Source of the DNA: a candidate division WWE3 bacterium RIFCSPHIGHO2_01_FULL_42_13
GTDB lineage: Bacteria > Patescibacteriota > WWE3 > UBA101185 > UBA10185
DNA length: 64,000 nt
Direction: 5' to 3'
Assembly: GCA_001772625.1 (NCBI GenBank)
Contig: MEVA01000016.1
Location: 67,159 to 131,158 of the forward strand
The position numbers were made by a program, and so were the translations under genes. This document shows positions 4,101 to 59,482 of this stretch, in pieces. The notes under the pieces were generated by a model. It searched no databases and had not been told where the DNA came from. It saw nothing but the letters and a program-made list of their open reading frames with translations. Positions within the stretch are counted from its first letter, which is position 1. Every line of letters begins with the position of its first letter.

Positions 4101-4840
4101 GGCACCATCCAATAAAGCCCGCTCAAAACCGCGATTGTAGCTACCAGAAAAATCTTTTTTGTCTTGGACCAAATCACCCGAAAATCTCTTTTTACAATGT
4201 CAAACAAAAAATAATAAAAAACCAGGAATACTGACATTAAGAGCAATGCGTAAGCTATGGGCGGCTGTATTCCTAATGAGGAGCCAACAATAAATATCAA
4301 AGACATTAGAAATACATCAACTCTGCTTAACCTGTTTTTATCAAGAATTGTTATCATAATGCCAATGAATATGGGAAGAGCAAACATTATCGTCACAGCC
4401 ATCTGAAGACGGACCCATAAAAACATATTATAAAAATTAATCATGTAGATAAGAATTGCGAACAGTTTGGCGTAAAAACCCCATTTATCGTTTTTCTCGT
4501 CATCTAAAATTCTATTCATCAGAAAAAGCATCGAAAATCCCGTGAGCGCAAACCAGAAAATAAAAGTTAGTTTTTCTACAGTAATTAGGGAAATATCAAG
4601 CCTAGAAAATAAAAATGCCACAAGGACAAAAGGCAGCGAGCCCAAATTATTTGATCTGTCAACACCAAATTGTATTTCCGGGTACCAAGTAGATAAACGC
4701 TCCACCAATCTATCCTCAGGATATAGAGGAAAATCCACATCAGTTCCGGTTATAAGTTCTCCCTTAAACCATAGAAGGGGTACAAGTCCTAGCAGCAGTA
4801 CAAATAGAATTATTAAATTTTGCTTTCCTTGTTTTGCCAT
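1151..4840 (-). CDS. Giant (1229 aa) GT-C-superfamily-like membrane protein (AftD/YfhO-like architecture): N-terminal polytopic domain of about 450 aa, large extracytoplasmic domain, C-terminal TM anchor
   Basis: Track ORF. The N-terminal multi-TM region carries conserved blocks shared with the paralog (LWFKGELITGTDVDFP, LIYMINFYNMFLWVRLQ, FSKGTHPPF, NLPGFWVHRAPWQKFG). The long hydrophilic middle part contains DIGYHGKFDLGYH and HILQRNDFRYDFFGD. The C-terminus (FYIGSLVSAGVFVVVSTAVVWRRKRSDKK) is hydrophobic. I could not confirm the family by search. Confidence 0.55.
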   Translation of the reverse strand: MAKQGKQNLIILFVLLLGLVPLLWFKGELITGTDVDFPLYPEDRLVERLSTWYPEIQFGVDRSNNLGSLPFVLVAFLFSRLDISLITVEKLTFIFWFALTGFSMLFLMNRILDDEKNDKWGFYAKLFAILIYMINFYNMFLWVRLQMAVTIMFALPIFIGIMITILDKNRLSRVDVFLMSLIFIVGSSLGIQPPIAYALLLMSVFLVFYYFLFDIVKRDFRVIWSKTKKIFLVATIAVLSGLYWMVPLGNLMLSSGLTDSAAGKEIYNVESLLAWTSTFTSFKNVFRQLGDIIWYDGWSGAAYFPEFIKLDQNSIFTLLSFLLPVAFVLSLAFKDHINKKTLLAIGGVTLISLYFSKGTHPPFEEIFKFAFNKLPGFWVHRAPWQKFGIFATLGLAVLGGIGFARGLGILFEKQKLIKKAHQPFYYLVVFLVISSIYIWVNNLFVFGTMFPSRDSDIGYHGKFDLGYHQTFPDYVFDTGKFLESQKYLFNVMVLPDMNANVYSWGYGGSSDVLNLVSSRGSLFNTYGEGFTLTDDPASIYQGLIEILYNKGNYDLNKIAGFFNIGYILQRNDFRYDFFGDTDSPAFIKDALGHFSIEKERNFGEWDLYKINKDNFYPAVYATTSVVDIKSISAVPLYAINAVNYGETQVFVGDEDYETGSNEQIVITVPPKTDDEEKKMLSDLYWSPGWVLPEANVAPNSIAYPLVRLREKTDLKKYAKDSDDYLDTLLWYTSKKAVELSSYEYLPDYVANNLLDAFVAGHEEIVSRLEDDLLNQNPDFWYSPDIIRKILGYHQRSLFMLSRIDRVPQSTIDYLYEIYDRYVRVNTNRTDTTCLDFCYEVVVERPGNYQLSFVFNDYSLLDQPSDSVILTIRNVHGTNLYSGPLNKIEKNQYFETGEYFVSLDLDEKKNLTDEIPVEEISLTQEDNLLLKVPDLRPTLRTFPVNNIKRFVVEDAQGLDGYDFSFRYNADSGFLGVAVFEEGVDGNYTLRYINGLKGPNELGVGNQGNLLVGSNSELCVYFDVEKCFSEFNAQIKSTPNSKRLHFYVFSYGPVAAGVEMGLESLLLTANATPNLVLESGKPAYSGSAPDIRFYRVNPTKYKVQVTNSNQPFYLILNQTFDSGWKLYKGGSFAGGDLAGTYLDGSVTEFGDVPGGIFETFGLQQIAGGDHYKANYFGNAWYIDPSGYGDTYELTIEFFPQNMFYIGSLVSAGVFVVVSTAVVWRRKRSDKK

Positions 4841-5157: not shown

Positions 5158-8100
5158 AAGCGCCTTTTTAAATATTCGAACACTGCTGTGGTGGAGATAG
5201 TTAGAAGGGTGATGGCAGTGACCACAGCAAAAATATAAAAGACTCTCTGAGAGGCAAATTCTATAATCAGAAAGTCAGCACCTTTAACATCCAGGGGATC
5301 TAAATACCAAGTGTTACTAAAAAAGTTTGATTTAAAATGTTTATCATTAGCGATCTCTTTCATTTTAAGCGTCTCGAAAGCACTTAAAATCCCCGTACTT
5401 CTTTCCCCTTCCCCGGCATAAAGCTTCCAGTGCGGACTGAAGGTTTGATTGAAAACCAGGGCAAATTTTCCGTCTCCATAGAAACGACCCAATTTGACTA
5501 GATATTTTGTGGGGGCAAGTTGTTTAAATACAACTTCTGGCAAACCCCCCGAAGGTTGCGGCATATTAAGTGATTTTAAAATAATGTTTGGGTTAAGTTG
5601 TCTTAACAGATTCATAGAAACAACGTCCACTTCTCCACCTCTAAAGGGATAGAGGTATATATCCAAAGATTCAACACCGTTTGACACCAAAACATCTGCC
5701 TCAAATATCTTTTCCTCCACGGTAGGTTCTAAAACACTTGATAACAAAACCCGCCCAGCACCATCTGTAGATTTCTGTACAAATAAGATGCCCATTCTGT
5801 CATTCGAGGTATATTTAAGCTCCGCCAGGTACTTACTTTGAAAATCAAGTGCATTATAAGAATACTTGATCATACTATTTAGATTCAAAGGACCTATCAG
5901 TTCCTCACTACGCTCAACTCCCACTCCCCTGGTAAACTCTTCGGGATTTACTACCTCGCGACTCTTGAGCGACACTGGCTCGTCCCGCATACCACTCAAG
6001 CTGAAAGTAACATTCCCAGAATCTAGATTATAGATATTTTTGGATGTCTCACTACCGCCATCAACATAAATATCGTACAAGTCTGACGGAAGTTCTCTTT
6101 GGTTAGATTCCACTATGAACATCTCGTATGAGCCAGGGATTTTAATATTAAAGTTGTAACAGTAATTTTTGCACCCTACTTCCTCCTGAATCTCTAAACT
6201 CTGAAATATCTCCAGTTGTTTGTTTAATTCACTTGTGATTTGCGGGGATAGGTCTAGTCCTTGGGTTTTTTCTAAAACCAACTTTATATTTTGAACGCCT
6301 AGAAAAGCGTACTTGGATACCTCCGAAGCATCTGCCCAGTTCGAAAACGCCTCACTATAATCTACAATTCCATTTAGATAATCCTTGTATAGCGTAGCTT
6401 TCTTACTGACTGGTAGATTATCGTACTTAAGTATCTCCGAGATTCTCTTAGAAGCAAGCCAAAGCTGTAATCCAGCCTTTGCAGCATTATCTCTCATTCC
6501 CAATAACTGCATTTTTTCCTTGAGTCTGACCAAATTATATAAAATGCTGTTGGGTTGAACATTAACCTCCGGTAGATAGGGCGTTTCTGCCAAGGTAGGT
6601 TCTCCCACAAACCCTCCAGGGGAAGAAAGATAAGTCTCACTGAAAGTCACAATGCCCCCCGCATCTTCAAGTAAAACAGTATTCGATCTGTCGTTTAAAA
6701 TTGCGGGTAGAAGAATGTTTTCCTTCATTGCAGTCACATCGACAAAATTATTTGCTGTGTATATAAACTGATTACTTCTCTCTTCACCAATACTATAAAA
6801 GTCCCATCGGCCAAAACTCGTTACAGGACCTAGCCCTAGTGTTGAGAGTTTTTCTTTAATAAACCCCGGTGAATCGTGATCACCGTAAAAATCGTATCTA
6901 AAATCATTTCTCTGCAGGATATGGTCTATGTTGTAGAAGTCAAAGACTTTTAACAGACCGTCGTGGTTGCCACTATATAGTGCCGAAACTATCGCACTGT
7001 AAATGTTGGTTATATACCCATCCAAAGCAAACCCCTCTCCATACGGAGAGTATAGTGTGGAACGGCCAAGAAACAGCCATGTTATATCTGTCGAGCTCCC
7101 ATACCCCCAGTCGTAAACACTTGTATGCTCTTCGGGAAGGAGAAGGATATTATAGTGCTCTTTGTTTAGCCCCTTTATATAATCTCGCGCCTCATACAAG
7201 TAGTCCGGGAAAGTGAGATGAAAGCCTAAATCAAATTTTCCATGATAACCAATATCCGACTCTTTGCCGGGAAACATAATACCAAACACAAAAAGATTAT
7301 TTAACAGTAGATAAAGCCCGATAAGCGTAGGTGCTATTATAAGTTTGGTAACTTTTAATTTTGCGTGTAAAAAGTTAACGGTGAAAAAAGTGCCAAAACC
7401 ACCTAAGACGGCATATGCCATTGTTGTAACTAAGCCAAACTTCTGCCATGGGGCCCTATGTATCCAAAAACCCGGCAAGTTATTAAAACTCCACTCAAAT
7501 ACACTATTAAACGGCGGGTGTGTTCCTTTTGAGAAGAATATAGTCATTAATGCAATAAGCCCAAAAGCAAGAATGGGCTTTTTATTCTCTTTGTTAACAT
7601 AAAGGGCCAGGAAGACTACAAGAAGAGCAAGAAAGCTTAAAATCAGAAACGCTGGGTTCTGATAAAAGTCTACGAACTCGGGGAAATAAAACTGGCCTCC
7701 CCAGCTGTCAAGCCAAACTACATCTCCAAACATTCTGAATATATTTAAATTGCTTGCCGTTTTGCTAGTCCACTCCAAAAGCTCTTTAACATTGTATGCT
7801 TCAACGCCAGCTTCACCACCTTGAATAAGACCAGACCTAAATATGTAATTTCCTAACGGAAAAATCCAATATGCTCCGCTGGCCGCAACCACAAAAGATA
7901 GGCAGACCAGTTTCTTTAGTTTGTGAAGGATAATCTTTTTATTTCTAAAAAGGTCAAACGACAAGTAAAACCCAATGTAAACACACATGCTCATCAGAAT
8001 CACATACATAACTGGGGGCTGCTTACCCAAGGGCCCACCAAGGATTGTCGCTACGGACAGAATCAAGAGATCTTTAGTTTTCAGGGAGTTTTTGTCAAGT

Positions 8101-8585: not shown

Positions 8586-9732
8586 TTATTATTTTTAATT
8601 CTTCCTCACCGACCAAACGCCAATCATACTGACGAGCAAAGTTCATACCTTTCTCTGAAAGAGTCTTGTGCAATTCCTTATCTTCAACAACCCTTATAAT
8701 CTCGTCTGCCATCCTTGTGTGGTCAAACAGCGGCACACGAATAATCATAGCTCCTAAATACGAAAACGCCGGGAGCTTGTAGGCAACTACGGGTGTGCCC
8801 AATGCCACGGCCTCAAGAACGGAAATCCCCCATCCCTCCTCGTGGCTTGCCGATATAAAAACCGCACTAGACTTAATTAATCTATATAAGTTTCTGGGCT
8901 GCAGCGGGCCTAACAGAATAATGTTATTGGTTAAGCCAACCTGCTTTATTTTACCTTTTAGCTGATTCGTAACCTCCACTGTACCACCCCCAGCAACAGC
9001 AACACACCAACTGGGGTGTTTTGCTACCACGCTAACCCAAATTTGAACAAGGTCAAAAATTCCTTTGGTTTCACGTAACCCTCCGGCAAAAGATGCCTCA
9101 AACCAATCTTTTTTAGGCACCGCAGCTTCAATCGCACTCATATTTATACCGTTTTTTACAAAATAATGCTTCCTAGGGCTTATTACACCAACAATACTCT
9201 GGCCCTCCGGCGTATCATAAACAAGCAGAGCATCTGAGAAGTAATGAACCACTCTAAAACCAACCCTTTGAAAAAGAAAGGATAGGAAATTAAATAAAAA
9301 GTTCCCGCTTCTTTTAAAAGGGCTCTTCGTTCTGTGATGGACCATGGAAACATATTTGGCGCCATAGATAATCTTGTAAAAAACCGCGGGGATCACGTCG
9401 CAAAAATAATCTGATGTTGAATAGACTACATCAGCACGAGGAAGTTTTCTAAAAACTACTAAATATAGTGAGTGTAAAGTAGAAATAAAATAAGAAACTA
9501 ACCTATCTAAATTTGAACTTTCTCTCTTCTTCCAAATGTGTGAAGCTACAACAAATTCTCCGTTAAACTTAAGCCCATTATTTCTATAGTTACCCAACCC
9601 CCCTAAGGTCGTCACGCAGTAGATTTTGCAACTTTTTCCTAAAATCCTCGCAGTCTCTATATGTCTGGCCGCGCCTCCACTTTGCACATCGCTTAAACCC
9701 GATCCATTATTTATATACAGAATGTTTTTCAT
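8575..9732 (-). CDS. Glycosyltransferase family 4 (GT-B fold)
   Basis: Track ORF 385 aa. The C-terminal EGWGISVLEAVALGTPVV motif is typical of GT4/GT1 retaining glycosyltransferases. Confidence 0.8.
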   Translation of the reverse strand: MKNILYINNGSGLSDVQSGGAARHIETARILGKSCKIYCVTTLGGLGNYRNNGLKFNGEFVVASHIWKKRESSNLDRLVSYFISTLHSLYLVVFRKLPRADVVYSTSDYFCDVIPAVFYKIIYGAKYVSMVHHRTKSPFKRSGNFLFNFLSFLFQRVGFRVVHYFSDALLVYDTPEGQSIVGVISPRKHYFVKNGINMSAIEAAVPKKDWFEASFAGGLRETKGIFDLVQIWVSVVAKHPSWCVAVAGGGTVEVTNQLKGKIKQVGLTNNIILLGPLQPRNLYRLIKSSAVFISASHEEGWGISVLEAVALGTPVVAYKLPAFSYLGAMIIRVPLFDHTRMADEIIRVVEDKELHKTLSEKGMNFARQYDWRLVGEEELKIINEI

Positions 9733-16838: not shown

Positions 16839-17549
16839 GTGAGCGAAATTCTGGAGTTACCGGGCAGTAGTCTTATTGCCCGGCAGTTTAAAGAAATGCT
16901 GGAAAAGATCGTTTTGCCTACAATCGGGCGGAATAGCTTATCCAGCATTTGGGCGGAGCTGTACCAGCATGGAACCCATCCCCTCATATACCAAGTGGGT
17001 GGGAACTGGGAAGTTTGGGGGAACAAGGACAACAATGGGAATTCCCAGCTCCTGGCCCACATGATCCTCGTAGCTTCGGGCTGCGCAGTCGTCTCTAAAG
17101 AGATGGGGATTGATGCTAGGGATGTTACCCTCGCGGGGATGGTTCACGACGGTCATAAGAGGATGGATATCGAGGTTGGATCTGATGAAGGTCACACCGC
17201 CTCTTATAAGCGTCTGATCGATCTCTTTGGTGCACAAGTAGCCCAGATTGCTGAATATAGCGGCCACACCAGCATGCATAATGTGGTTGCCGAACTAGCC
17301 ATGCCTGGGCGGGATTGGGGAAAACTTCTCTTCTTCCTGATCGACGGTATTGCTGTGCACGATGGCTTCCAACCAGTCTCAGCCAAATGCGACTATCTGG
17401 ACTCGGTCGCCGCGGAAGGCAAAAAATACCAGTACAACTCGGATGGAATTAAAGAGTGGGGCCACCCGTTCTTTACATTCCAACGCTACTTGTCTGAAAC
17501 CATTCAGGCAATGGTTGCCCACAAGCTTGGGGTTTTTACTGCCGACTAA
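16839..17549 (+). CDS. Hypothetical protein with HD-domain-like metal-binding motifs (possible phosphohydrolase); compositionally foreign
   Basis: 236 aa. GTG start with strong SD (GGAGAGG). Spacing pattern H...HD...H...D (LLAHMIL, MVHDGHKR, HTSMH, AVHDG). GC is about 50% versus about 39% in flanking genes, and CTG/GCC-rich codon usage is unlike the neighbours. Confidence 0.45.
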   Translation: MSEILELPGSSLIARQFKEMLEKIVLPTIGRNSLSSIWAELYQHGTHPLIYQVGGNWEVWGNKDNNGNSQLLAHMILVASGCAVVSKEMGIDARDVTLAGMVHDGHKRMDIEVGSDEGHTASYKRLIDLFGAQVAQIAEYSGHTSMHNVVAELAMPGRDWGKLLFFLIDGIAVHDGFQPVSAKCDYLDSVAAEGKKYQYNSDGIKEWGHPFFTFQRYLSETIQAMVAHKLGVFTAD

Positions 17550-17615: not shown

Positions 17616-17650
17616 AAAATGGGATCACCTAGTGATCCCATTTTCTTTTC
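17616..17650. terminator. Bidirectional rho-independent terminator: perfect 13-bp stem (AAAATGGGATCAC/GTGATCCCATTTT), 3-nt loop, T-tract
   Basis: Stem 17616..17628 and 17632..17644, loop CTA, followed by TTTTCTTTTCC. It lies between convergent genes 16839..17549 (+) and 17678..19915 (-). Confidence 0.6.
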
Positions 17651-24007: not shown

Positions 24008-25291
24008 TTAGTATCCAAGCTCGCCCAAAATTAACGGGTCAGTGCCAAGGATAGCTAAGTTTAACGGGTTGTCTCCATCTCCTATCAGTACTCCTAGTAC
24101 AATTACTTCGTCCTCTCCTATAACATGGTTTGCGAAAGAATATATTCTGTAAGACGGGTCTCTAACCCCCGAATATCTCGTAGCATCAAGTAACAGCAAT
24201 TCTTCAAGCTTCCCAGTTTCGATATTAAACCTGCTAAGGTTTTCGTACCTTGCGGTAACTTCGACTACACGTCCAATATTGTTACAGGAATAAAATCCGC
24301 TGGCTACACTTCTGCTAGTTACAAAGTAGATATCGCCATTGAAAATTTCTGCACGTACGGAAAAGTCGTCAGTTTCTACACTAACTAACTCCCTTTCGCT
24401 CTCCAAGTTATCGGGGCTTACAATAAAAAATTCGGAGGTACCTTCTTCAATAGCTCTTTGAACAATTAGGCTATCTTTATACCAGCCCTCAACATAAGAT
24501 CCTAAAACGTAACCACCATAAGGTAGTTCAATTACTTTATTTTCTTTAAGATCATAAATCATATACCCTATCCCCTCCCAAAACCCTTTCGATAGCAAAA
24601 TTTTACTGCCGTCGCCTGAAAATTCCGGACTGTGGTATGCCCAAACGCCCCCTATCCCCTCCTCTTTCATCCCTGTATCGAAAATTTCTTTAATGGTGCC
24701 CGTCTTTAAGTCGTAGATATTTAAACCTGTGCTAGTGGTGATTGCCAATAGATTCCCGTCTGGGGAAAATCCAACATCAACCAGACTTAGAGTGTAGCCC
24801 ACATCACCGCTGCTTATTTCCTTCATTGTATGCACGGATGTTAAAGTTCCAGTTGTGAAGTCGTACACGAAAGCGGTATCTGTTTTTTGCTCCTCGTCAC
24901 CCTCGGCCGTTTCTACATAGATAAAAGCTATTTTATTTTCATTTTTGGACAAAGAATAAGAAGCAACCTCTCCTCCAAGTTTGTTGATCAAGCTGTCAAA
25001 AGTTTTCCGCCCGAAAAGTAATTTAAACTTTTCCCTTTGCGCATCAGATTTAACAACTAATGTTCTCGAAACATTAAGCTTAGTTTTATTTCTGTATGGA
25101 AATATCACGGAACAGATATTGCTTATGGTGTCTTCTGTTAAAGTTGTGTTGCTGAGTGAATAATATGAGTAATACAAGTAAGCACCGTAGGCAACAGCTC
25201 CTAACAAAAAGATAATAACGATGATGCCAACAACAAAAGCTTTGTTTCTACCTATACTTTTTGGTGCCTTTTCAAAAGCTTCCACTTCCAC
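24008..25291 (-). CDS. N-terminally membrane-anchored protein with TolB/PD40-like beta-propeller repeats, hypothetical
   Basis: 427 aa. TM helix at residues about 20-42. Repeated SPDG.../GDG... blades (FSPDGNLLAITT, SPEFSGDGSKILL). Confidence 0.35.
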   Translation of the reverse strand: MEVEAFEKAPKSIGRNKAFVVGIIVIIFLLGAVAYGAYLYYSYYSLSNTTLTEDTISNICSVIFPYRNKTKLNVSRTLVVKSDAQREKFKLLFGRKTFDSLINKLGGEVASYSLSKNENKIAFIYVETAEGDEEQKTDTAFVYDFTTGTLTSVHTMKEISSGDVGYTLSLVDVGFSPDGNLLAITTSTGLNIYDLKTGTIKEIFDTGMKEEGIGGVWAYHSPEFSGDGSKILLSKGFWEGIGYMIYDLKENKVIELPYGGYVLGSYVEGWYKDSLIVQRAIEEGTSEFFIVSPDNLESERELVSVETDDFSVRAEIFNGDIYFVTSRSVASGFYSCNNIGRVVEVTARYENLSRFNIETGKLEELLLLDATRYSGVRDPSYRIYSFANHVIGEDEVIVLGVLIGDGDNPLNLAILGTDPLILGELGY

Positions 25292-25303: not shown

Positions 25304-26278
25304 TCACGAAAACTGTCTGAAGACTTCATATTTCTGTGATTGCTTAATTAAATCCTCGAGATGATACACGCAAACCCCCATGGACGGACTTTTTATGGCA
25401 TTTTCCAAGGATTGTTTAAATTCTTCTGTGCTAATTTCCCCACCTTCATTTACTGATTGGATTAAAGGCAAAAACGCCTTTCCCAGCTGCCAGTAATACT
25501 CAACCATCTCCCCTATCCAACTTACATCTTTACCTAACATTTTGTGAAAAAGCCCCGGGCTAAAAATATCTATCAAAGGTATAAGCTTACTAAAATCCTG
25601 CGCGACAACTCTTTGAATTCCCGCTCCATAATCTTTATCTTTCCACGGCACGATGAACATTCCCAGTTTTATTTCTTTTCCAGAAGCGGCAATTAACGCT
25701 TTAGCTTCCTCAACAAAAGAAACAACTTGCCCCGCCTTAAACTCCAACCATTCGTGGTAATAACTACCGTCAATATGAAGCGCGATGTTTTGTAATGCTG
25801 TGCCCTCGCCTCCAACTCCCGCAATTGGTTCGCCAATATATTCTTCAAACATCTTAAGACACCTTTCGCAGTAACACGTGTCTAAAATATCCGGGTTAGC
25901 ACTTTCCCAAGATGTCGGGTATCTCATATGGTTTAGCCAAACTCCTTGAACATCGTTCTCCAAAACTCTTTTTATTTCTTCCAAGCGGTTCTTTCTTACT
26001 CCCGGGTGGGTTGGGCATATACCGATTAGCGGATCGCTGATTGTATCTTTATCGTTAGAATCAACCGCTTTTGCGTCAGGGTACTTTTCAAGTAGGTCTT
26101 TCCCGGCAAAAACAATGACACTTGCGTAAATTTCAACTTGTCCAAGTTTTTCTTTTATTTGCGAGGTTGTTTGCGGCGAAATATTTTCGGAACTTACTAG
26201 GACTGAATTTAAATTTAATTGAGAGGCCCCCTCTAAAACAGAATCTTCAACATTTAGTAAAAATCCGGATTTATGCAT
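25304..26278 (-). CDS. Hypothetical protein (324 aa), unknown function; possibly TIM-barrel hydrolase-like
   Basis: Track ORF only. No signal peptide and no recognisable catalytic motif. Confidence 0.3.
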   Translation of the reverse strand: MHKSGFLLNVEDSVLEGASQLNLNSVLVSSENISPQTTSQIKEKLGQVEIYASVIVFAGKDLLEKYPDAKAVDSNDKDTISDPLIGICPTHPGVRKNRLEEIKRVLENDVQGVWLNHMRYPTSWESANPDILDTCYCERCLKMFEEYIGEPIAGVGGEGTALQNIALHIDGSYYHEWLEFKAGQVVSFVEEAKALIAASGKEIKLGMFIVPWKDKDYGAGIQRVVAQDFSKLIPLIDIFSPGLFHKMLGKDVSWIGEMVEYYWQLGKAFLPLIQSVNEGGEISTEEFKQSLENAIKSPSMGVCVYHLEDLIKQSQKYEVFRQFS

Positions 26279-28467: not shown

Positions 28468-29997
28468 TCAATACTCACCTAACCTATAAAGGTATATTTT
28501 GGGGTCTACAAAGATGCTGCCTGGGAAATTTATGGTCTTTTCCTCTATCAGTGTGTCGCAACACGCATACTCCTCGTTAACTTTCTGGCTATCGTAAGAA
28601 AAGTTATATAAATAATCGCGGGGGACATTCCTATAGTTTAGTTTCCACGCGTTTGTGCCTTTAATATACTTCTCCTCTATTCCTTCTGTTTTTGAGATTT
28701 CCTCCGACCTATTCCAAACATATTTATTTACTAAAACAAAATCGTTTGATAGTTGGTATGAGAAAAACATAAGAAATAAAACAAATCCCGAAAGAATTAC
28801 TTTAGAGTACTTACTTTCTTGAAAATAATCTTTTAGCAAAAATAACAAAATGGTTGGAATTAGAATATGAAGGTATCGATCATAGAAAGCTTTTGTAGCA
28901 ATAAGCATACCCGTATAAACTACAGCCAAAACTAAGTAGAGATTTATGGCCTTTCTTTTAAAGACAATGACGTAAGACACAAATATAGGAAAAAGAATTT
29001 TGGAAACTAAGTCCCAGTAGCGATACAAATCATAATTTCCCTTAAAGTAATACTTGGTCCCACTTATACCTCTTGGATAAAACCCCGTGCGCTCAAAAGT
29101 ATTCTCAAAATATGGGAACTCGCCCCAAGAAACTTCATGCGGGTTAAAATTACTAATCATTAAAAAGTATAGCCCTACCGCAAGAGCTAAAAATAACAAC
29201 ACATGCTTTTTTTTACTTAATATCTCTTTTATGTTAACAGAACTTAAAAATACGGGTAGCAAAAAGGCCGTAAGTACAATAAAAGTGCCTATAAACACAG
29301 CGGCAACATAATCTTTATCCAAAAGGTTTTTCCACTGCAGCGGAACCTCAATAATCCTTGGGGTTAGGGGAAATATTTTTTCGTAATAAAAGTAGAGAGC
29401 ACCAAACGTAATAAGACTTACTGCAGCTGGCTTCCAATTTTGTTTGTACGAGTAAAATAATCCAAGGCCTAACGGAATAAAAAGAGAGACCTGCCTTACA
29501 TTCAAACCGGCAAAGACAACAAGGGCCATAAGAGCCAGGTATTTATAATTTTTAGTTTCATCAAACAATAAGATGCACCAAAGGCTTAGTAAAAAGAAAA
29601 ACATAAAATATACCTCTGTCATAAATCCAAAGGTTAAATACATATTTAAAGGATTGAAAAAATAAATGAGCCCCACTAACACGGAGGTCGAGAATTGCTT
29701 TTTCATTCTATACAAAATAAACGCTGACAACAGGTAAAAGTTAGCGACAGAAAAAAGCAAAGTTAAAATGGGCAGTTTTTCTAGAGAGAATATTCTTGCA
29801 AAGCCTGCAGCAATCAAACCTTGGGTGTAAAACGTGGGGCCAGTGTAGGGGTGCAGAGTAAAATCCCCCTTCATAAACCTTGAAACCATTTCATAGTAAA
29901 CCCAATCATCATTTTGATAAAAATCTATTTTGTTTGAAAGCGTAAACACAAGCATAAAAAGAGCCAGTGTTATAAGCAAAAGCCATAATTTCTTCAT
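28468..29997 (-). CDS. Polytopic membrane protein, GT-C-fold glycosyltransferase-like (ArnT/PMT-type)
   Basis: 509 aa, about 11-13 TM segments. Extracytoplasmic first loop with acidic motif (YQNDDWVYYE). Confidence 0.45.
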   Translation of the reverse strand: MKKLWLLLITLALFMLVFTLSNKIDFYQNDDWVYYEMVSRFMKGDFTLHPYTGPTFYTQGLIAAGFARIFSLEKLPILTLLFSVANFYLLSAFILYRMKKQFSTSVLVGLIYFFNPLNMYLTFGFMTEVYFMFFFLLSLWCILLFDETKNYKYLALMALVVFAGLNVRQVSLFIPLGLGLFYSYKQNWKPAAVSLITFGALYFYYEKIFPLTPRIIEVPLQWKNLLDKDYVAAVFIGTFIVLTAFLLPVFLSSVNIKEILSKKKHVLLFLALAVGLYFLMISNFNPHEVSWGEFPYFENTFERTGFYPRGISGTKYYFKGNYDLYRYWDLVSKILFPIFVSYVIVFKRKAINLYLVLAVVYTGMLIATKAFYDRYLHILIPTILLFLLKDYFQESKYSKVILSGFVLFLMFFSYQLSNDFVLVNKYVWNRSEEISKTEGIEEKYIKGTNAWKLNYRNVPRDYLYNFSYDSQKVNEEYACCDTLIEEKTINFPGSIFVDPKIYLYRLGEY

Positions 29998-41208: not shown

Positions 41209-42405
41209 TTAGCTCTTACGAATTACTACCTTATCATAAACTTGATCAACCTTCTTGGCCATCAAATGCCACGAATAATTGCTTCTAACAAAGCCTAAAT
41301 CGGCGGAAATGCCGCTATCTAGCACCTCCTGAACTTGCTTAGCAATACTTTCCGCGGAAACTTCACGCAGATAAACCAAGCCCTCAATTTTCTGTGAAGT
41401 TTCAAAACCTGATGCGAGAGCTGGAACTCCACATGCCAAACTTTGCAATACCACTTTTGGTAAACCCTCCCAGTCAGAGGGCAGTACAAAGATATCCGCG
41501 ATTTGAAATACAATCGGAACCTGTGGGTAAGGTGTATAACCAACCCTAACTATTCTATGATCTAAATTATACTTCGAGGTAACATCTAATATTTTACTTT
41601 CGTATTCTTCGTCACCGTGAGGCCCCACCAAAAGAAGCTTGTAATTAGACGGCAAAAATCTTAACGATTCTATAAGAAGGTGAATATTCTTTCTTTCGAC
41701 AATCGCACCATTATTTAAAATTACTTTATCGTGCGGGGCAAGACCCAGCTCTCCTCGCGTCTTTACTAACTCTTCAGGCCCAATAGGTGTAAATAACTCG
41801 GTGTTTACGCCTGTTTCTACAACAAAACACTTTGAGGGATCGGTGTTGTAGTGCTTTATTGCTTCATTTTTAGTTTCCGGGCTTACAAAAATACAAGCGT
41901 CCGCGCTGCCGATAGCCCATCTATCGGACATTTGCGCAAGTGGCCAACTTAGATATCTTGAAATAGCTTTGATATTTTTATCCTGACCCTCTAATTTTTC
42001 CCACCTGCCTTTTACCGTGTTATGAAAATGGGCTATCAGGGGAACTTTGAGTTCCTTTGCTCCTGGAAGAAATTTTTTTAGGAAAAACCTATATGCATAA
42101 ATCCAAATTGCGAAGTGACCGTGCGAGTGAATCACATCAGGTCTATTTTTTAATCGCCAGAATAAGTAATAGAAAAACACAATCAGTGAAGTGGTTATAC
42201 TTAGAGTTCCCCGTAAGGGCTCACGAAGAAACGGGTGAAGTTTAGCTCCTTTTAAAGTCTCGATTGGTCCGGCAAATGGCCATCTACCGCAAAACACATC
42301 TATTTCATGCCCAAGCTTTACCTGGGCCGAAGTCATTTCATATGGAGCTGGAGCTAGGCCGTCCCATGGCGGAGGCCAGTCGTAAACAATTCTTAGAATT
42401 TTCAC
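41209..42405 (-). CDS. Glycosyltransferase family 4
   Basis: 398 aa. EGLPKVVLQSLACGVPALAS motif. Confidence 0.75.
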   Translation of the reverse strand: MKILRIVYDWPPPWDGLAPAPYEMTSAQVKLGHEIDVFCGRWPFAGPIETLKGAKLHPFLREPLRGTLSITTSLIVFFYYLFWRLKNRPDVIHSHGHFAIWIYAYRFFLKKFLPGAKELKVPLIAHFHNTVKGRWEKLEGQDKNIKAISRYLSWPLAQMSDRWAIGSADACIFVSPETKNEAIKHYNTDPSKCFVVETGVNTELFTPIGPEELVKTRGELGLAPHDKVILNNGAIVERKNIHLLIESLRFLPSNYKLLLVGPHGDEEYESKILDVTSKYNLDHRIVRVGYTPYPQVPIVFQIADIFVLPSDWEGLPKVVLQSLACGVPALASGFETSQKIEGLVYLREVSAESIAKQVQEVLDSGISADLGFVRSNYSWHLMAKKVDQVYDKVVIRKS

Positions 42406-43583
42406 AAGATAACCTCATTAAAAACTTTTTCGTACTTATCAAGCATAACATCAAGGGTGAATTCTTTTTTTGCCTTTTCGAACGCTTTTTTTCCCATCAC
42501 GTTTCGCAACTCTTCGTCTTCGGAGAGTTTAAGTATTGCGTTTTTAAGTTGGTCTACATTTCCAGATTCATAAATAATTCCCGTTACTCCATCTTCAATC
42601 CCTTCCGGAATTCCACCCATGTTTGATCCAATAACAGGAACTTGCGCAAGCATTGCTTCAACAATGCTCATTGGAAATCCCTCAACACGACGAGAAGGCA
42701 AAACGAAAATATCCGACTCTCCCAAAAGTTTCATAGATTCTTTGTGGGGAATACGGCCAAAAATATGAATCTTATCCAAAAGCTTCTTTTCTGAAACCAT
42801 CTCTTTCAACCCCATCAAGTGAGGGCCGTCTCCAACTATGGTAAGTTCGACTTTCTTGTCCCGAATCTGCCCCATCGCGACAACTAAATCAGCAAGACCC
42901 TTTGACCTGTGGATAAGTCCGACATAAAAAAGCCTAACGACCCCATCTTCTTTTTTGGTTCGTGCAATATCTTCATCAATTCCATTGTAAATAACCACAA
43001 CCTTACTTTCGTCAACAAAAGTTTCGTCAATTAAAGCCTGTCTCACAAACTTAGAAACCGCAATAACTTTATCCGAATGCAAAACAAATTCACGCTGACG
43101 GTTAAAGAAGTTAAGTAGAAAGTATGCTGTGTTGGGAATTAATTTTATGTAATCTTTTGGCGAACTTAAACTTTGCAAAAGCGTTTTGTACTCACCCGTT
43201 GTTGTTCCATGAGAAATAGAAACAACCGGAACACCCAACTCATTTTTCTTCATCACCAAACCTAACGCCGCGGAACTTTGTCCGAGAATCAAATCAAATT
43301 TTTCTTCTTTATAGGATTGTTTGAAAGCTTCTACTGAACGGTTGATCCAGTTATTCTTATCCAAATAACCAAAGCCTCCCAAGCTTCTGTAACTACAATC
43401 AATAAACTTATAGGAAACACCGTTTAATTCTTGGGAATCGGTGTTTAACTCCTGTTTGGGGGCGAAAATAGTGATTTTGTGCCCTCTTTTGGCTAAACCC
43501 TCACATAAGGCCTTATTTTGAGTCTCTAAACCCCCAAAACCCTCGTGCAAAGTTGTTTTCTTTATAAAAACGGCCACGTTCAT
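42402..43583 (-). CDS. Glycosyltransferase family 4
   Basis: 393 aa. EGFPMSIVEAMLAQVPVIGSNMGGIPE motif. Confidence 0.8.
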   Translation of the reverse strand: MNVAVFIKKTTLHEGFGGLETQNKALCEGLAKRGHKITIFAPKQELNTDSQELNGVSYKFIDCSYRSLGGFGYLDKNNWINRSVEAFKQSYKEEKFDLILGQSSAALGLVMKKNELGVPVVSISHGTTTGEYKTLLQSLSSPKDYIKLIPNTAYFLLNFFNRQREFVLHSDKVIAVSKFVRQALIDETFVDESKVVVIYNGIDEDIARTKKEDGVVRLFYVGLIHRSKGLADLVVAMGQIRDKKVELTIVGDGPHLMGLKEMVSEKKLLDKIHIFGRIPHKESMKLLGESDIFVLPSRRVEGFPMSIVEAMLAQVPVIGSNMGGIPEGIEDGVTGIIYESGNVDQLKNAILKLSEDEELRNVMGKKAFEKAKKEFTLDVMLDKYEKVFNEVIL

Positions 43584-43611
43584 GGGTTAATTGTACTATG
43601 TTAAAAGCCCC

Positions 43612-43640
43612 TAGGCATTTTTGAAGAAATGTCCTATAAT
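43612..43640 (+). promoter_or_regulatory. Sigma70-like promoter candidate: -35 TAGGCA (43612..43617), 17-nt spacer, perfect -10 TATAAT (43635..43640)
   Basis: Read directly. It is about 42 nt upstream of the ATG at 43683, which has AAGGAGGG with a 7-nt spacer. Confidence 0.35.
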
Positions 43641-43682
43641 GCGGTCAGAAACACGGCACAATAATCGCCTAAGGAGGGTGAC

Positions 43683-44285
43683 ATGTACCGACGTATAAAA
43701 AGGGGTCTGGATCTCTTAGTGGCGATCCTGCTGTATGCTCTTTGGACACCTCTAAGCATTGTTCTGCTGAGGATTCCGATCAGACTTGGATCGTACGGAC
43801 ACTCCCTGCTGAAGCAAGAGCGTGTGGGTTTGAACGGTCAGAAATTCACGATCTTCAAACTCCGGACAATGTATTCCAATGCCAACGAGATAGGGAGGGC
43901 AAACGGAATACGTTCCCACGCAAAGCCCAAAGGTGATGATCCGAGAGTCACTCCGTTAGGTAAATTCCTGCGGAAAACCAGCATCGATGAGTTTCCCCAA
44001 CTGTTAAATATCATCAGGGGGGAAATGAGTTTTATCGGCCCACGTCCACCGCAACCGCACGAAATGAAAGAGTGGCGAGCCATGTATGGAAATCTTGCCA
44101 CAAAAAGGCTTGAGGTCCTTCCTGGTCTAACGGGTTGGGCGCAGGTCAACGGCAGGGACGCTCTTACACCAAAGCAACGATTGGAGCACGACGCATACTA
44201 TGTCGAAAACCAATCCTTCTGGTTGGACTTGATGATTCTTATCAAGACTATTCCAACGTTGTTCAAGTGGGAGAGTGCAAACTAA
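43683..44285 (+). CDS. Polyprenyl-phosphate sugar-1-phosphate transferase (PglC/WbaP C-terminal-domain type initiating phosphoglycosyltransferase); compositionally foreign
   Basis: 200 aa. Single N-terminal re-entrant helix, then KFTIFKLRTM, DEFPQLLNIIRGEMSFIGPRP and PGLTGWAQV, the hallmark bacterial sugar transferase motifs. GC is about 47-50% with CTG-rich codons. Confidence 0.8.
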   Translation: MYRRIKRGLDLLVAILLYALWTPLSIVLLRIPIRLGSYGHSLLKQERVGLNGQKFTIFKLRTMYSNANEIGRANGIRSHAKPKGDDPRVTPLGKFLRKTSIDEFPQLLNIIRGEMSFIGPRPPQPHEMKEWRAMYGNLATKRLEVLPGLTGWAQVNGRDALTPKQRLEHDAYYVENQSFWLDLMILIKTIPTLFKWESAN

Positions 44286-44323
44286 AAAGGCTCAATGGGA
44301 AACCAACGAGCCTTTAGTTTTTG
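44286..44323. terminator. Terminator-like hairpin (8-bp stem AAAGGCTC/GAGCCTTT, 14-nt loop) followed by a T-tract, between convergent genes
   Basis: Stem 44286..44293 and 44308..44315, then AGTTTTTG. The loop is long, so confidence is moderate. Confidence 0.4.
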
Positions 44324-44331
44324 TGCTGAAA

Positions 44332-45498
44332 TTAAACGAGTAGACTTTCTATCTCACTAACACTTTCTTCCAAGTCAAACATCCCAACAGCCTTATTATA
44401 TGCAGCACTTGATAATGAATTTCGTAAATCCGTATCACTCAATAATTTTTTAATTGCCTCGGCTAACTTTACAGAATCTTTCTGGGGAACAATCAGCGCA
44501 TTACTTGAATTCAAGAAATCAGAAATACTTCCCGCGTCAGTTGTCACAATTGGAACCTTAAGCATTGCCGCCTCTATCAAAGAGTTTGGAACTCCATCGG
44601 CATCTCCACCTTGGGCATTAATGCTTGGCTGAACATACACATCGGCAGCGTGCAGGTACGGCAAGATCTCATTAAATGGCGTTTCCCCAAGCAGCACAAA
44701 ACTTTTCTCCAGCCCCTTCGATTTAATCAAGCTTTTTAGTTCGCCAAGTAAGGGACCACCGGCCGCAACATAAATTAAATGCGAGACCTCTTTCTTTAAA
44801 ATTTCTGAGGCCTCAATTAAATACTTGATTCCCTTCTTCTCTTCCAACCTTCCAATAGTAAAAATAAACGGCTGGTCAGGCTTTTTAAAACTCGTTCCGT
44901 TTGGTAAAGCTAAAGATTTAGGATCAACACCGTGATAAATAAGTTTTAATTTTGAATGCAGCGAGGGGTCAACTTTGGACTTAACAGACTCCAACGCATT
45001 TTTGTTACAAAAAGTTATGGATTTGGCGAGTTTTGCTTTTTTGATAATTAGATCGGGGTATTCCAAAACGTCCCGCGCGTGCCCAGAAATTACTAATGGT
45101 ACGTCAAGAAGAATTGATGCTACAAGAGCAACTGTAGAAGGTTTTGAAAGAAAATGGGAATAAATAACCTCGGGTTTGTATTGGCGGAAAATTCTTGCGT
45201 ACCCAAACCCCTTTATAAACTCATATGGTCTTAGAACTCCAACTGTTTTCCAGGCCTTAAAAACGTTCGCAGCTTTAGTCAAGAGAAGCGTCAGCCCTAT
45301 TGCGCCATCAAGAAGGTTTGCCTGCTTGTACTTAACGTGCCCTTCTAAAGTCTTCTGCGCAAAATCCAGACCCTTGTTCGGGGCAACGACCGTCAAATCA
45401 ATATTTGGGGACTTTGCCAAGCCCGCAATTTCCCGTTCAATAAACGTTTCTGAAAGCACAGGAAATGTAGGGATAAAAGCCAAAACTCGCTTTTTCAT
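44332..45498 (-). CDS. Glycosyltransferase family 4
   Basis: 388 aa. GT-B architecture with C-terminal GDADGVPNSLIEAAMLKVPIVTTD. Confidence 0.75.
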   Translation of the reverse strand: MKKRVLAFIPTFPVLSETFIEREIAGLAKSPNIDLTVVAPNKGLDFAQKTLEGHVKYKQANLLDGAIGLTLLLTKAANVFKAWKTVGVLRPYEFIKGFGYARIFRQYKPEVIYSHFLSKPSTVALVASILLDVPLVISGHARDVLEYPDLIIKKAKLAKSITFCNKNALESVKSKVDPSLHSKLKLIYHGVDPKSLALPNGTSFKKPDQPFIFTIGRLEEKKGIKYLIEASEILKKEVSHLIYVAAGGPLLGELKSLIKSKGLEKSFVLLGETPFNEILPYLHAADVYVQPSINAQGGDADGVPNSLIEAAMLKVPIVTTDAGSISDFLNSSNALIVPQKDSVKLAEAIKKLLSDTDLRNSLSSAAYNKAVGMFDLEESVSEIESLLV

Positions 45499-45511
45499 AG
45501 TTGAATTATAC

Positions 45512-46870
45512 CTACTTTGGCAAAAGGGCGGATTTTACGTCTGTGCCGTGGTAAGCATTGGTTCTTTTCCCAACTGCATGATACTTAAAGCCCGCGCCTT
45601 CAACTTCCGCTTGATCCAGTAGGTTACGGCCATCAAAAATCGTTGGGTTTTTTAGAAGCTTTTTCACCTTCTGCAAATCCAATTCCCTAAATTCTTTCCA
45701 TTCGGTCAAAACTAAAAGCGCGTCGGCATCTTTCATGGCGTCATAGGCATCTTTTGCGTAGTGAATTCCAACATCACCAAGATAACTTCTGGCATTTTCA
45801 TTGGCTTCAGGATCGAAAACGCGCAAACTTGCACCTCTACCTCTTAGCAAATGGATTATCTTAATTGCAACTGACTCGCGAATGTCGTCCGTGTTTTCTT
45901 TAAACGCCAAACCTAAAACTGCAAAAGTTTTCCCACCTAAAGCTTCGCCCTTAAATTCCTGATAGATTTTGCTTGTGAAGGAGTGCTTCTGCAGGTCGTT
46001 CACGCGCATGACACCTCGAATGAGTGAGAAGTCGTAAGCAAAGTCTAAAGATGTACGACTCAAAGCTGCCACATCCTTAGGAAAACAGCTCCCACCATAA
46101 CCTATGCCCGCCACTAAAAACCTTGTTCCAATACGCTTATCAAGTCCCATTCCCCTTGCAACTTCCTGAACGTTGGCACCGGCCTTTTCGCACAGCTGGC
46201 CAATTTCGTTAATAAAAGAAATCTTTGTGGCAAGAAACGCATTCGCCGCGTATTTAGTCATTTCAGCCGATCTTAAATCAGTTTCCACAATCGGTGACTC
46301 TAAATGCCCGTACAACTTTCTTATAACTTTTTTCGCGCGTTCGGTTTGAGCTCCAATCACAGTTCTGTCTGTATTTTGCATATCTTCAATTGAATACCCC
46401 TCTCTTAAAAACTCAGGGTTAGAAACAACATCAAACTTCACGCCTTTTGGGGCGACACTTTGAATAACTTCCTTTACCCTTTCATTGGTACGAACAGGAA
46501 CCGTACTTTTTGTAACAACAACTGTGTATCTCCCCTTTTGAAGGTTCTTGCCTATTTCTCCCGCAACACCAAGGACATAGCTTAAATCAGCCTGACCAGA
46601 ATCTCCTTGTGGCGTACCGACGCAAATAAAGACTATATCGGCATCCTTCATCCCCTCTTTAAGCTTGGTGGTAAATTTTAATCTTCCGGCTTTAATATTT
46701 TCCAAAACAAGTTCTTCAAGTCCCGGCTCAAAAATCGGCATTTCGCCTGATTCGATTTTTTTAATTTTCTTTTCATCAATATCAACTCCAACCACTTCAT
46801 TACCCCAATCGGCAAAAACTGCCGCGCCCACCAAACCTACATAACCTGTTCCAATTACACACAACTTCAT
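45512..46870 (-). CDS. ugd: UDP-glucose 6-dehydrogenase family (nucleotide-sugar dehydrogenase)
   Basis: 452 aa. N-terminal GTGYVGL Rossmann, catalytic GGSCFPKD motif, and C-terminal UDP-binding domain. Confidence 0.9.
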   Translation of the reverse strand: MKLCVIGTGYVGLVGAAVFADWGNEVVGVDIDEKKIKKIESGEMPIFEPGLEELVLENIKAGRLKFTTKLKEGMKDADIVFICVGTPQGDSGQADLSYVLGVAGEIGKNLQKGRYTVVVTKSTVPVRTNERVKEVIQSVAPKGVKFDVVSNPEFLREGYSIEDMQNTDRTVIGAQTERAKKVIRKLYGHLESPIVETDLRSAEMTKYAANAFLATKISFINEIGQLCEKAGANVQEVARGMGLDKRIGTRFLVAGIGYGGSCFPKDVAALSRTSLDFAYDFSLIRGVMRVNDLQKHSFTSKIYQEFKGEALGGKTFAVLGLAFKENTDDIRESVAIKIIHLLRGRGASLRVFDPEANENARSYLGDVGIHYAKDAYDAMKDADALLVLTEWKEFRELDLQKVKKLLKNPTIFDGRNLLDQAEVEGAGFKYHAVGKRTNAYHGTDVKSALLPK

Positions 46871-58282: not shown

Positions 58283-59482
58283 GTGATCGCTATGCTAATA
58301 TTTAACTGTATGAGCCTTGTCCAAACATCATCGAAAGTCCGAAAGGGAGTAGTAATTACTGTGGCTGTTATTAGCCTCTACATTATCTTTCTCATGGTAA
58401 AAAGCCCGATTAGGCAAATGTGGTACGCGTTTTTCCCACCCGCCGATTTGCCAACCGTCGCATTTGGATATCTCGACCCACTTGAGTTTACTGAAGCACC
58501 TATTGTCTCATCAGTTCCTGAATATGTGTTAAATACCCCAACCGGAAGGCTTCCAACAGATTTAAAAACCAGCCTAGCCGTATACAAATATGTTTCACCA
58601 TCCTTTTCTTTTAGCGAAGGGAAAAGAGCTCAACAGGATGCCGCTACACTGGGTTTTAGCGACACTATGCGGGTAAGTGACTTGAGCAGCGATCTTTTCA
58701 CCTGGCAGGATGTTCAGTTTGGAGGAAACTTGAAAATTGACACAAAAACGAGAACCTTAGAGCTTGAAACCCCCTTAGCGAACCTCGGCAGTTTGTTTCC
58801 AGTCGGAAAGTTCACACAAACAAACGCAGTGGCGGCAGCAAGATCGCTACTACAAAAAGTTAATAGATTTAATGACAAACTTTACACTTCGGATATGCGA
58901 GGGTATCAGGAAGTCAGATTTGGTAAGTTTAGCGGCACACGTGTAGTAGAGGTAGATTCAATTCCAGAAACCCAAATTGCTAGGGTAGATTTCTTTAGAA
59001 AGATTCTGGATTTTCCAATTTTGGGACCAGACCCAAAACAGGGTTTGTTGCAAGTTTACTTGAGAGGGCCGGAAACTAAAGATGCGTTTCCGCAATTAAA
59101 CTTCCCGCATGTTAGGGCCTACCATTGGGAAATAAATACAGGCGACTCGGCTACATACCCACTTACTCCCATTGAAACAGTGTGGGAACAAATTTCGCAA
59201 AATAACGGCGCTATAGTTAACGTAACACCGCAGGGCGCAAGTCCGTTCGAAACACCACTGGCAACAAGAGTCGATCGAGTCCTAATCAACGAAGTTTACT
59301 TGGCTTACTACGATAATATAACCCCACAACAATTCCTACAGCCTGTTTATATCTTTGAGGGAAACTACACCACAGGGGCTGGCGCTTTTGGTAGTATCAC
59401 CATTTATTACCCGGCTGTAAGCAGTGAGTATGTACGGGCGCCAGTGAATACTCAAACGCCCGCATCGCCCGGCCAACTATAA
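58283..59482 (+). CDS. Hypothetical secreted or membrane-anchored protein
   Basis: 399 aa. N-terminal hydrophobic segment (VVITVAVISLYIIFLMV). No recognisable domain. The start may be at an internal Met (58310). Confidence 0.4.
   Translation: MIAMLIFNCMSLVQTSSKVRKGVVITVAVISLYIIFLMVKSPIRQMWYAFFPPADLPTVAFGYLDPLEFTEAPIVSSVPEYVLNTPTGRLPTDLKTSLAVYKYVSPSFSFSEGKRAQQDAATLGFSDTMRVSDLSSDLFTWQDVQFGGNLKIDTKTRTLELETPLANLGSLFPVGKFTQTNAVAAARSLLQKVNRFNDKLYTSDMRGYQEVRFGKFSGTRVVEVDSIPETQIARVDFFRKILDFPILGPDPKQGLLQVYLRGPETKDAFPQLNFPHVRAYHWEINTGDSATYPLTPIETVWEQISQNNGAIVNVTPQGASPFETPLATRVDRVLINEVYLAYYDNITPQQFLQPVYIFEGNYTTGAGAFGSITIYYPAVSSEYVRAPVNTQTPASPGQL

Follow-up and report, generated by a model that had tools for sequence, protein, structure and literature searches.

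Small monotopic phosphoglycosyl transferases (SmPGTs; for the nomenclature see PMC11626204) include PglC of Campylobacter concisus (PDB 8e37, 8g1n), the closest described system to the gene considered here. PglC carries several fingerprints of its substrate, UDP-N,N'-diacetylbacillosamine (UDP-diNAcBac), namely a GLLLP mobile loop, an aromatic box formed by Y118, Y122, W150, F154, and F197, and a C-terminal extension (PMC10186338). The large PGTs, such as WbaP, WcaJ, and the exopolysaccharide (EPS) enzymes (TIGR03025, TIGR03023, TIGR03022; PDB 8t53), share the catalytic domain and have in addition an N-terminal four-helix membrane bundle together with a nucleotide-binding domain. In this work, a PGT gene in a surface-glycan locus of the candidate division WWE3 bacterium RIFCSPHIGHO2_01_FULL_42_13 was compared with these systems. 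The gene lies in a stretch of 64,000 nucleotides of contig MEVA01000016.1, which was analysed as a whole and is called the window. The source is a groundwater metagenome bin, and WWE3 is a candidate phylum according to the NCBI taxonomy. Positions 43584-44331 are exactly the gap between the start of one GT4 glycosyltransferase gene and the stop of another, and hold the PGT gene on the opposite strand:

43683-44285, plus strand: PGT gene, small monotopic phosphoglycosyl transferase with a predicted PglC-like fold, 200 aa (Pfam Bac_transf, PglC match).
42402-43583, minus strand: GT4 glycosyltransferase gene GT4_393, divergent from the PGT gene (Pfam Glycos_transf_1 and Glyco_transf_4).
44332-45498, minus strand: GT4 glycosyltransferase gene GT4_388, convergent with the PGT gene (Pfam Glycos_transf_1).

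Our results indicate that a functional SmPGT gene was probably inserted here as a block in the ancestor of one WWE3 sub-clade and inherited from then on, with the replacement of at least one allele.

The PGT protein was 100% identical to the "hypothetical protein A2886_01010" of WWE3 bacterium RIFCSPHIGHO2_01_FULL_42_13. It matched Pfam Bac_transf (PF02397) with an E-value of 3.3e-58 and 196.6 bits against a gathering cut-off of 27, over profile positions 1-178 of 179. This single domain covers residues 6-194, with no fused domains, and was the sole Bac_transf match in a six-frame scan of the window. The motifs on which the gene had been recognized in a sequence-only reading, KLRTM (residues 59-63), DEFPQ (102-106), GPRP (119-122), and PGLTGWAQV (147-155), were all present in the product. 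The D102-E103 dyad and P120-R121-P122 were invariant in an alignment of 14 sequences, and they align with D93-E94 and the PRP of PglC. In phmmer, the protein aligned end to end with C. concisus PglC 8e37 (E = 1.8e-32). The AlphaFold model (predicted local distance difference test 88.8) matched 8e37_A in Foldseek with an E-value of 4.6e-16 and template modelling scores of 0.76/0.82, and the remaining significant matches were all PglC or WbaP chains. Residues 2-36 were predicted to be helical in this model, K6 and R7 are basic, and T22-P23 of the N-terminal hydrophobic helix aligns with the Ser-Pro of PglC. The protein is thus predicted to have an N-terminal re-entrant membrane helix with a Thr-Pro break, preceded by basic residues; the helix proline was found at other positions in PGT orthologues. 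As judged from sequence and model, the Bac_transf core, the minimal architecture of about 200 aa, the DE dyad with PRP, and the PglC fold place the protein in the SmPGT class.

The PGT and PglC are equal in size (200 vs. 201 aa) and 38% identical in the structural alignment. They share the fold, the Asp-Glu dyad, the PRP, and the N-terminal basic residues, with Thr-Pro in the PGT for the Ser-Pro of the re-entrant helix. However, the substrate fingerprints differ. The GLLLP loop is replaced in the PGT by the longer loop GIRSHAKPKGDD, and the loop region reads ANGIRSHAKPKGDDP where PglC has ANGELLPDD. This long loop, at about residues 64-85, is clade-specific. Two of the four alignable positions of the aromatic box are aromatic in the PGT (W131, Y135), with P and L standing in for W150 and F154. 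The extension bearing F197 is absent; the alignment stops 5 residues before the end of the PGT, while PglC runs about 19 residues further. As the diNAcBac fingerprints are missing, the substrate is probably not diNAcBac, and on these sequence comparisons the protein is a small monotopic PGT but, as far as the substrate is concerned, not an orthologue of PglC. The sequence-only reading had gone on to the identity of the first sugar of the pathway, and nothing in the present analysis identifies that sugar.

The best NCBIfam matches were to the C-terminal catalytic domains of the large EPS, WcaJ, and WbaP models (3e-70 to 1e-57). The whole-protein cut-offs of these models (296-411 bits) were not reached, the PGT scoring 196-238 bits over model positions of about 255-453. 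In comparison with the large PGTs, the catalytic domain and fold are shared (WbaP, E = 1.7e-11), but the N-terminal four-helix membrane bundle and the nucleotide-binding domain are lacking.

The PGT gene was strongly atypical in composition, as had been noticed from the sequence alone. The GC content of the window is 40.1%. The gene had a GC content of 0.488 against a mean of 0.401 over 49 window open reading frames (ORFs; z = 3.2), and a GC content at third codon positions (GC3) of 0.552 against a mean of 0.388 (z = 4.1); the sole other composition outlier among these ORFs was ORF 16839-17549. The Kullback-Leibler distance of its codon usage, 0.239, was the second highest in the window; among blocks of 199 codons taken from other genes to match its length, 0.1% reached this value (p about 0.001). 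CTG made up 32% of the Leu codons in the PGT vs. 10% elsewhere, and the corresponding shares were 53% vs. 16% for ATC and 57% vs. 9% for GTC. The plateau of raised GC (0.46-0.52) was restricted to the coding sequence, and the 99-nt region on the promoter side (5' of the gene) had a genome-like GC of about 0.39-0.40.

Two general causes of this bias were rejected. Nearly all genes of the window are on the minus strand, and the PGT gene had been counted as one of only two on the plus strand. This was a miscount, since the window holds five sizeable plus-strand ORFs, the PGT gene and those at 16839, 21481, 30038, and 58283. C and G at third positions (C3 and G3) were both elevated in the PGT, whereas the other plus-strand genes showed a slight rise in C3 only; orientation alone therefore does not account for the composition. 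An intrinsic GC richness of the family was rejected with a control of 79 PGT loci from other genomes, in which no systematic GC surplus of the PGT over its flanks was seen. Among them, the 29 low-GC genomes had an average difference between PGT and flank GC of +0.006 (sd 0.031, maximum +0.058), compared with +0.088 in the window.

The gene has a transcription-unit layout of its own, made up of a promoter-like site, a strong Shine-Dalgarno (SD) sequence, the ORF, and a hairpin, and is accompanied by a -10-like box of the neighbouring gene:

43612-43640, plus strand: predicted sigma-70-like promoter of the PGT gene, TAGGCA-17 nt-TATAAT (consensus scan, 10 of 12 matches).
43671-43678, plus strand: SD sequence AAGGAGGG, 4 nt 5' of the PGT ATG (sequence reading).
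44284-44322, both strands: bidirectional intrinsic-terminator-like hairpin with A-run, stem (44288-44313), and T-run (folding energy, conservation).
43590-43598, minus strand: TAGTACAAT box, -10-like, ending 6 nt 5' of the GT4_393 ATG (sequence, conservation).

The description of the gene as a stand-alone cassette of an initiating transferase, with a TATAAT -10, a strong SD, and a terminator hairpin, was therefore borne out by composition and layout, and these elements were conserved in relatives. Both promoter hexamers were invariant in four lineages, in which the synonymous sites of adjacent genes had diverged by about 50% or more. The SD sequence AAGGAGGG was conserved in loci L009, L010, and L091; in L010, the PGT orthologue starts with TTG (L010 496-498) instead of ATG after the same SD. 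The hairpin had folding energies of -16.3 kcal/mol (z = -3.5) on the plus strand and -16.1 kcal/mol (z = -3.9) on the minus strand. Being placed between GT4_388 and the convergent PGT gene and folding on both strands, it could terminate both the PGT transcript and the convergent minus-strand operon. Its stem changes were compensatory in L009 and L010, and L092, L093, and L099 have a hairpin in the corresponding position, with z values between -4.4 and -5.7. An Rfam scan of 42500-45500 matched no family, and no tRNA was found in the whole window.

On the other side of the cassette, no SD was found between the TAGTACAAT box and the GT4_393 ATG, and the box may for this reason be a promoter from which the downstream half of the operon is transcribed with no leader or next to none. 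The box was found at the same distance in every cassette-bearing locus and in L097, with related boxes in L094 and L098. Boxes of this type, 6-9 nt 5' of the GT4_393 start and without an SD, were seen in the window, L009, L010, L092, L093, L099, L100, L097, L094, and L098. Its retention across WWE3, with or without a PGT, suggests a leaderless internal promoter of the operon.

The same cassette was present at the same junction, in the orientation opposite to the operon, in six other lineages (L009, L010, L091/L092, L093, L099, and L100). The identity of the PGT across the bearer lineages ranged from 32 to 72%, and the identities to the window protein were as follows:

L009: 72%.
L010: 69%.
L091/L092: 54%.
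L099: 49%.
L100 (partial): 48%.
L093: 37%.

All bearer PGTs have the long loop after KLRTM, while the homologues outside this group are without it. The six bearer PGTs then available, with L099 and L100 left out of the tree, formed one clade in a neighbour-joining (NJ) analysis, in which the core five had modest support (142 of 200 bootstraps). As the source is a metagenome bin, an assembly chimera or contaminating DNA might be suspected, but we regard this as hardly credible. The identical PGT protein was found on 21 contigs with the same flanks in all 8 places shown (ENA, Logan, and JGI assemblies), and the same neighbours in these assemblies indicate that the locus is not a chimera. Diverged relatives keep the same architecture as well, and an assembly artefact was accordingly refuted.

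In the closest pairs, the synonymous divergence of the PGT matched that of its flanks. Between the window and L009, the synonymous distance (dS) was 1.44 for the PGT and 1.1-1.6 for the adjacent GT4 genes. For the pairs among the window, L009, and L010 (the trio), the 4-fold identities of the PGT and GT4_388 were 0.53 vs. 0.54, 0.45 vs. 0.41, and 0.36 vs. 0.35. Thus, the cassette has been inherited together with its flanks since the trio lineages split; in deeper lineages, the synonymous sites were saturated. The sequence-only reading took the gene to be horizontally acquired, which would most simply mean a recent import from a GC-richer foreign donor, with the bias as unameliorated donor composition. 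A strong composition outlier in a self-contained cassette, lacking a close homologue outside its own cluster, is what such an import would leave. However, we consider a recent import very unlikely. Six other lineages have the cassette at this very site, with PGTs as little as 32% identical, the PGT and flank dS values are equal in the closest pairs, the regulatory DNA is genome-like in GC and conserved across lineages, and among the 21 contigs with the protein, the 8 assembled places that were shown have an identical arrangement. A fresh import is contradicted by the orthologous cassettes and the flank-equal dS, and within its sub-clade the gene groups with vertically inherited homologues.

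Orthologues of GT4_393 were used to map the presence and absence of the cassette; the closer relatives all carried it, and four more distant lineages were found to be without it. In three of these, the GT4_388 and GT4_393 orthologues abut, separated by 16 nt in L096, 17 nt in L098, and 55 nt in L094/L095, and the empty junctions in L096 and L098 lacked a hairpin. No PGT was found anywhere in the 14-21 kb loci of L096, L098, and L094/L095. L097 (a GW2011_GWC1_41_7-type WWE3 locus) has at the same junction an opposite-strand gene for a 225-aa TPR-repeat protein (7289-7966). With the PGT cassette in bearers and the TPR gene in L097, the junction appears to be a recurrent insertion point. In an NJ tree of the flanking GT4_393, the bearers grouped together with all four empty lineages excluded (172 of 200 bootstraps). 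Two members of the bearer clade in this tree, P0189 and P0178 (L099/L100), were examined afterwards, and both carry the cassette, which confirmed the grouping predictively. The empty junctions and the bearer clade make insertion the more parsimonious reading, so gain is the likelier polarity on these comparisons. Because the -10-like box is also present in the cassette-free L094, L097, and L098, the junction was probably a transcription boundary already before the insertion. The earlier proposal that the pathway was remodelled by acquired DNA was thus supported in part: the empty sites in L094-L098 favour an insertion into the operon, but the event is old, and no donor was found.

The opposite polarity was also considered, in which the PGT was ancestral at the WWE3 junction and deleted in several lineages, its GC richness being an equilibrium specific to the gene and not a foreign trace. 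Selection on mRNA or codons, GC-biased gene conversion in a gene prone to recombination, or the head-on orientation would then keep up the GC. We regard this as rather unlikely, since four separate outgroup lineages are without a PGT, three of them with compact junctions (and no hairpin in L096 and L098), and the tree of the flanking gene unites the bearers in a single clade. The GC values of the bearers bear on this question as well:

Window: PGT GC3 0.55, flank GC3 about 0.38.
L009: PGT GC3 0.53, flank GC3 about 0.39.
L010: PGT GC3 0.54, flank GC3 about 0.35.
L092: PGT GC3 0.505, flank GC3 about 0.38.
L093: PGT GC3 0.505, flank GC3 about 0.42.
L099: PGT GC3 0.32, flank GC3 about 0.245.
L100: PGT GC3 0.37, flank GC3 0.31-0.34.

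The PGT had the highest GC3 among the complete genes in all seven lineages (+0.04 to +0.18), a higher value being reached only by a partial ORF of 59 codons where the L009 contig ends (GC3 0.576). An excess in every bearer lineage indicates that the composition is not simply unameliorated foreign DNA. Its presence in 7 of 7 lineages despite saturation would suit an ancestral gene with its own equilibrium, as would the evidence for recombination at the PGT gene and the GC3 of the other plus-strand genes (0.41-0.43 vs. 0.39). On the other hand, a GC content above that of the flanks is not a general trait of PGT genes, and G3 is raised alongside C3, unlike in other head-on genes. Third-position changes in the trio also suggest decay more than equilibrium. 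In the PGT, 55 changes went from G or C to A or T and 36 the other way; in the flank, the counts were 81 and 99 (Fisher p = 0.02). The PGT ratio was compatible with the approximately 1.9:1 of neutral decay (p = 0.32) and marginal against equilibrium (p = 0.06). These counts mildly favour a slow GC loss of the PGT from a once richer state; an offset that is maintained, or GC-richer alleles that came in later from related lineages, would be alternatives. An argument that saturation rules out a decaying import was dropped, as the 4-fold identities of the trio (0.36-0.53) fall short of full saturation.

In one comparison, the PGT and its flanks had different histories. Between the window and L092, the 4-fold identity was 0.31 for the PGT (n = 48) and 0.55 (n = 128) and 0.57 (n = 23) for the adjacent genes (Fisher p = 0.005). 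The lower identity of the PGT indicates that its allele is older than the flanks in this pair, and thus points to allele replacement by recombination. Divergence along the locus was mosaic elsewhere too. GT4_398 (41209-42405) had a dS of 0.6 vs. L009, with neighbours at 1.1-1.6. Against L092 the pattern was reversed, the 4-fold identities of GT4_398 and the DUF2079 gene being 0.36 and 0.34, close to saturation, and the dS of GT4_393 being 1.3. Recombination among WWE3 lineages appears to be frequent at this glycan locus.

These results raise the question of whether the cassette site is old and the GC-rich allele of the window, L009, L010, and L092 came later, by homologous replacement from a GC-richer cassette-bearing relative. 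The replacement indicated between the window and L092 and the dS mosaic would agree with this, as would the GC3 of about 0.50-0.55 in the sub-clade vs. 0.32-0.37 in L099 and L100. NCBI lists WWE3 bins with 46 or 47 in the name where the source bin has 42, a number that we take, in our reading of the naming scheme, to be the GC percentage. However, no GC-rich WWE3 donor locus was recovered, and L093, which lies outside the sub-clade, has a GC3 of 0.505 too. The PGT and its flanks agree in dS in the window-L009 and window-L010 pairs, and a replacement, if there was one, would have to be older than the split of these lineages. We therefore find a later origin of the GC-rich allele unlikely.

In an exhaustive search of 1.84 billion cluster representatives with HMMER, nothing outside the query's own cluster exceeded 51% identity. 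The few near hits with organism names were mostly Firmicutes (Falseniella, Streptococcus, Pelotomaculum, Desulfotomaculum, Geobacillus), and among cluster members the only named near hit was Falseniella ignava. A Patescibacteria PGT (L046) was 40% identical and part of a larger ORF. In a scan of genome contigs with the PGT alignment, the matches listed included relatives at 36-49% identity from many phyla, and other WWE3 PGTs were not among them. A clade-specific degenerate DNA pattern for YGHSLLxQ[EK]RVG had no match in metagenome contigs, though the window itself matches. The top non-self representatives, P0292-P0302 (313-880 aa), were matched in two or three stretches at 36-44% identity. 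These are possibly tandem or fused PGT domains, whose scores would be inflated by the repeated match and would not mark closer relatives. In the NJ tree, the sister of the WWE3 PGT clade was a mixed-phylum group. The phylogeny proposed in the sequence-only reading thus gave the gene its own WWE3 clade, with the nearest outsiders at no more than 51% identity, but no donor group.

Several observations weigh against a single old insertion. No donor can be named for the PGT. The polarity is based on an NJ tree of a single gene and not on a species tree, and loss in other lineages is possible. The monophyly of all the PGTs has weak bootstrap support (84 of 200 for all six, against 142 for the core five), with L099 and L100 outside the tree. 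The highest-in-locus GC3 in all seven lineages despite saturation among the deep ones is poorly explained by a single ancient import with mere decay. Finally, the hallmarks of mobility are lacking: no integrase, transposase, or adjacent tRNA was found, the direct repeats at the cassette borders were short and at chance level only, and the neighbours are glycosyltransferases.

Taken together, we still hold the insertion of a functional SmPGT gene in a WWE3 sub-clade ancestor, followed by inheritance and at least one allele replacement, to be probable. The promoter, ORF, and hairpin would have been inserted together as one block into the pre-existing transcription boundary between the two GT4 genes. 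The cassette would then have been inherited with its flanks within the sub-clade, and at least one PGT allele would later have been replaced by recombination through these conserved flanks. The GC-rich coding sequence would be a compositionally non-native mark, whose excess might persist because a GC-richer import decays slowly, because relatives richer in GC supplied later alleles, or because of a bias specific to this gene. As suggested by its family membership, the PGT may act at the cytoplasmic membrane face and transfer a sugar-1-phosphate from a UDP-sugar to polyprenyl phosphate. The lipid-PP-sugar primer formed in this way could be extended by the neighbouring GT4 and GT2 transferases and translocated by a Wzx-like flippase, after which the PMT_2-type and DUF2079 membrane proteins might use it. 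It is conceivable, though doubtful, that the region from promoter to hairpin is a swappable "initiation module" exchanged by homologous recombination. Its long-loop SmPGT would use an unassigned UDP-sugar, and GC-biased gene conversion or selection would actively keep up its GC, which would then be no relic.

The rest of the locus codes for several GT4 and GT2 transferases, a UDP-sugar dehydrogenase, and a GT2-GtrA fusion, together with two Wzx-like flippases, DUF2079, LPG_synthase_TM, and three PMT_2-type proteins, methyltransferases, and epimerases. The dehydrogenase gene follows GT4_388:

45512-46870, minus strand: UDP-glucose/GDP-mannose dehydrogenase family gene (Pfam UDPG_MGDP_dh N-terminal, central, and C-terminal domains).

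This gene is variable among the relatives: L096-L099 have it, and L094/L095 do not (about 8744-8776). L009 has in its place, at 4596-4772, a non-matching partial ORF with a GC of 0.51. A split dehydrogenase gene in L001 was first a candidate for a frameshift, which was rejected, as the scaffold has a run of N. The plus-strand ORF 16839-17549, described earlier as a first GC-rich insert, codes for 236 aa, has a GC of 0.51 and a GC3 of 0.58, and starts with GTG after AAAGGAGAGG. A GGGATCAC/GTGATCCC hairpin lies downstream at about 17621-17650, followed by a T-run. The ORF is an ORFan, its sole match among 5.8 billion proteins being itself (3 contigs, JGI only), and it matched neither Pfam, even at E<=1, nor NCBIfam. 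Its third positions (C3 0.32, G3 0.27) are unlike those of the PGT. Five further sizeable ORFs within or close to the glycan locus are without a Pfam family, namely 58283-59482 (plus strand) and 28468-29997, 25304-26278, 24008-25291, and 1151-4840 (minus strand). Four of the five had no Pfam match even at relaxed thresholds, and one of the five codes for a 1229-aa protein.

The present analysis dates and delimits a probable gene-gain event in a surface-glycan locus of an uncultured candidate-phyla-radiation bacterium. The matched loci with and without the initiating enzyme could guide work on the surfaces of episymbiotic-type bacteria. The lasting GC excess in a long-resident gene is also a caution against taking atypical composition as proof of recent transfer. 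The enzyme family and mosaic glycan loci are already well known, so the wider impact is limited. Variable gene cassettes are known in the surface-polysaccharide loci of bacteria, such as those for O-antigen and capsule. The WWE3 locus resembles these in its gene of atypical GC, its variation by presence and absence, its mosaic divergence, and the apparent allele replacement via flanks. However, no insertion sequences or mobility genes flank the cassette here, and the variable element is the initiating PGT alone, with its own promoter-like site and terminator-like hairpin and in the opposite orientation. In further contrast to the O-antigen and capsule cassettes, it has stayed in place throughout a deep sub-clade within a lineage of the candidate phyla radiation.

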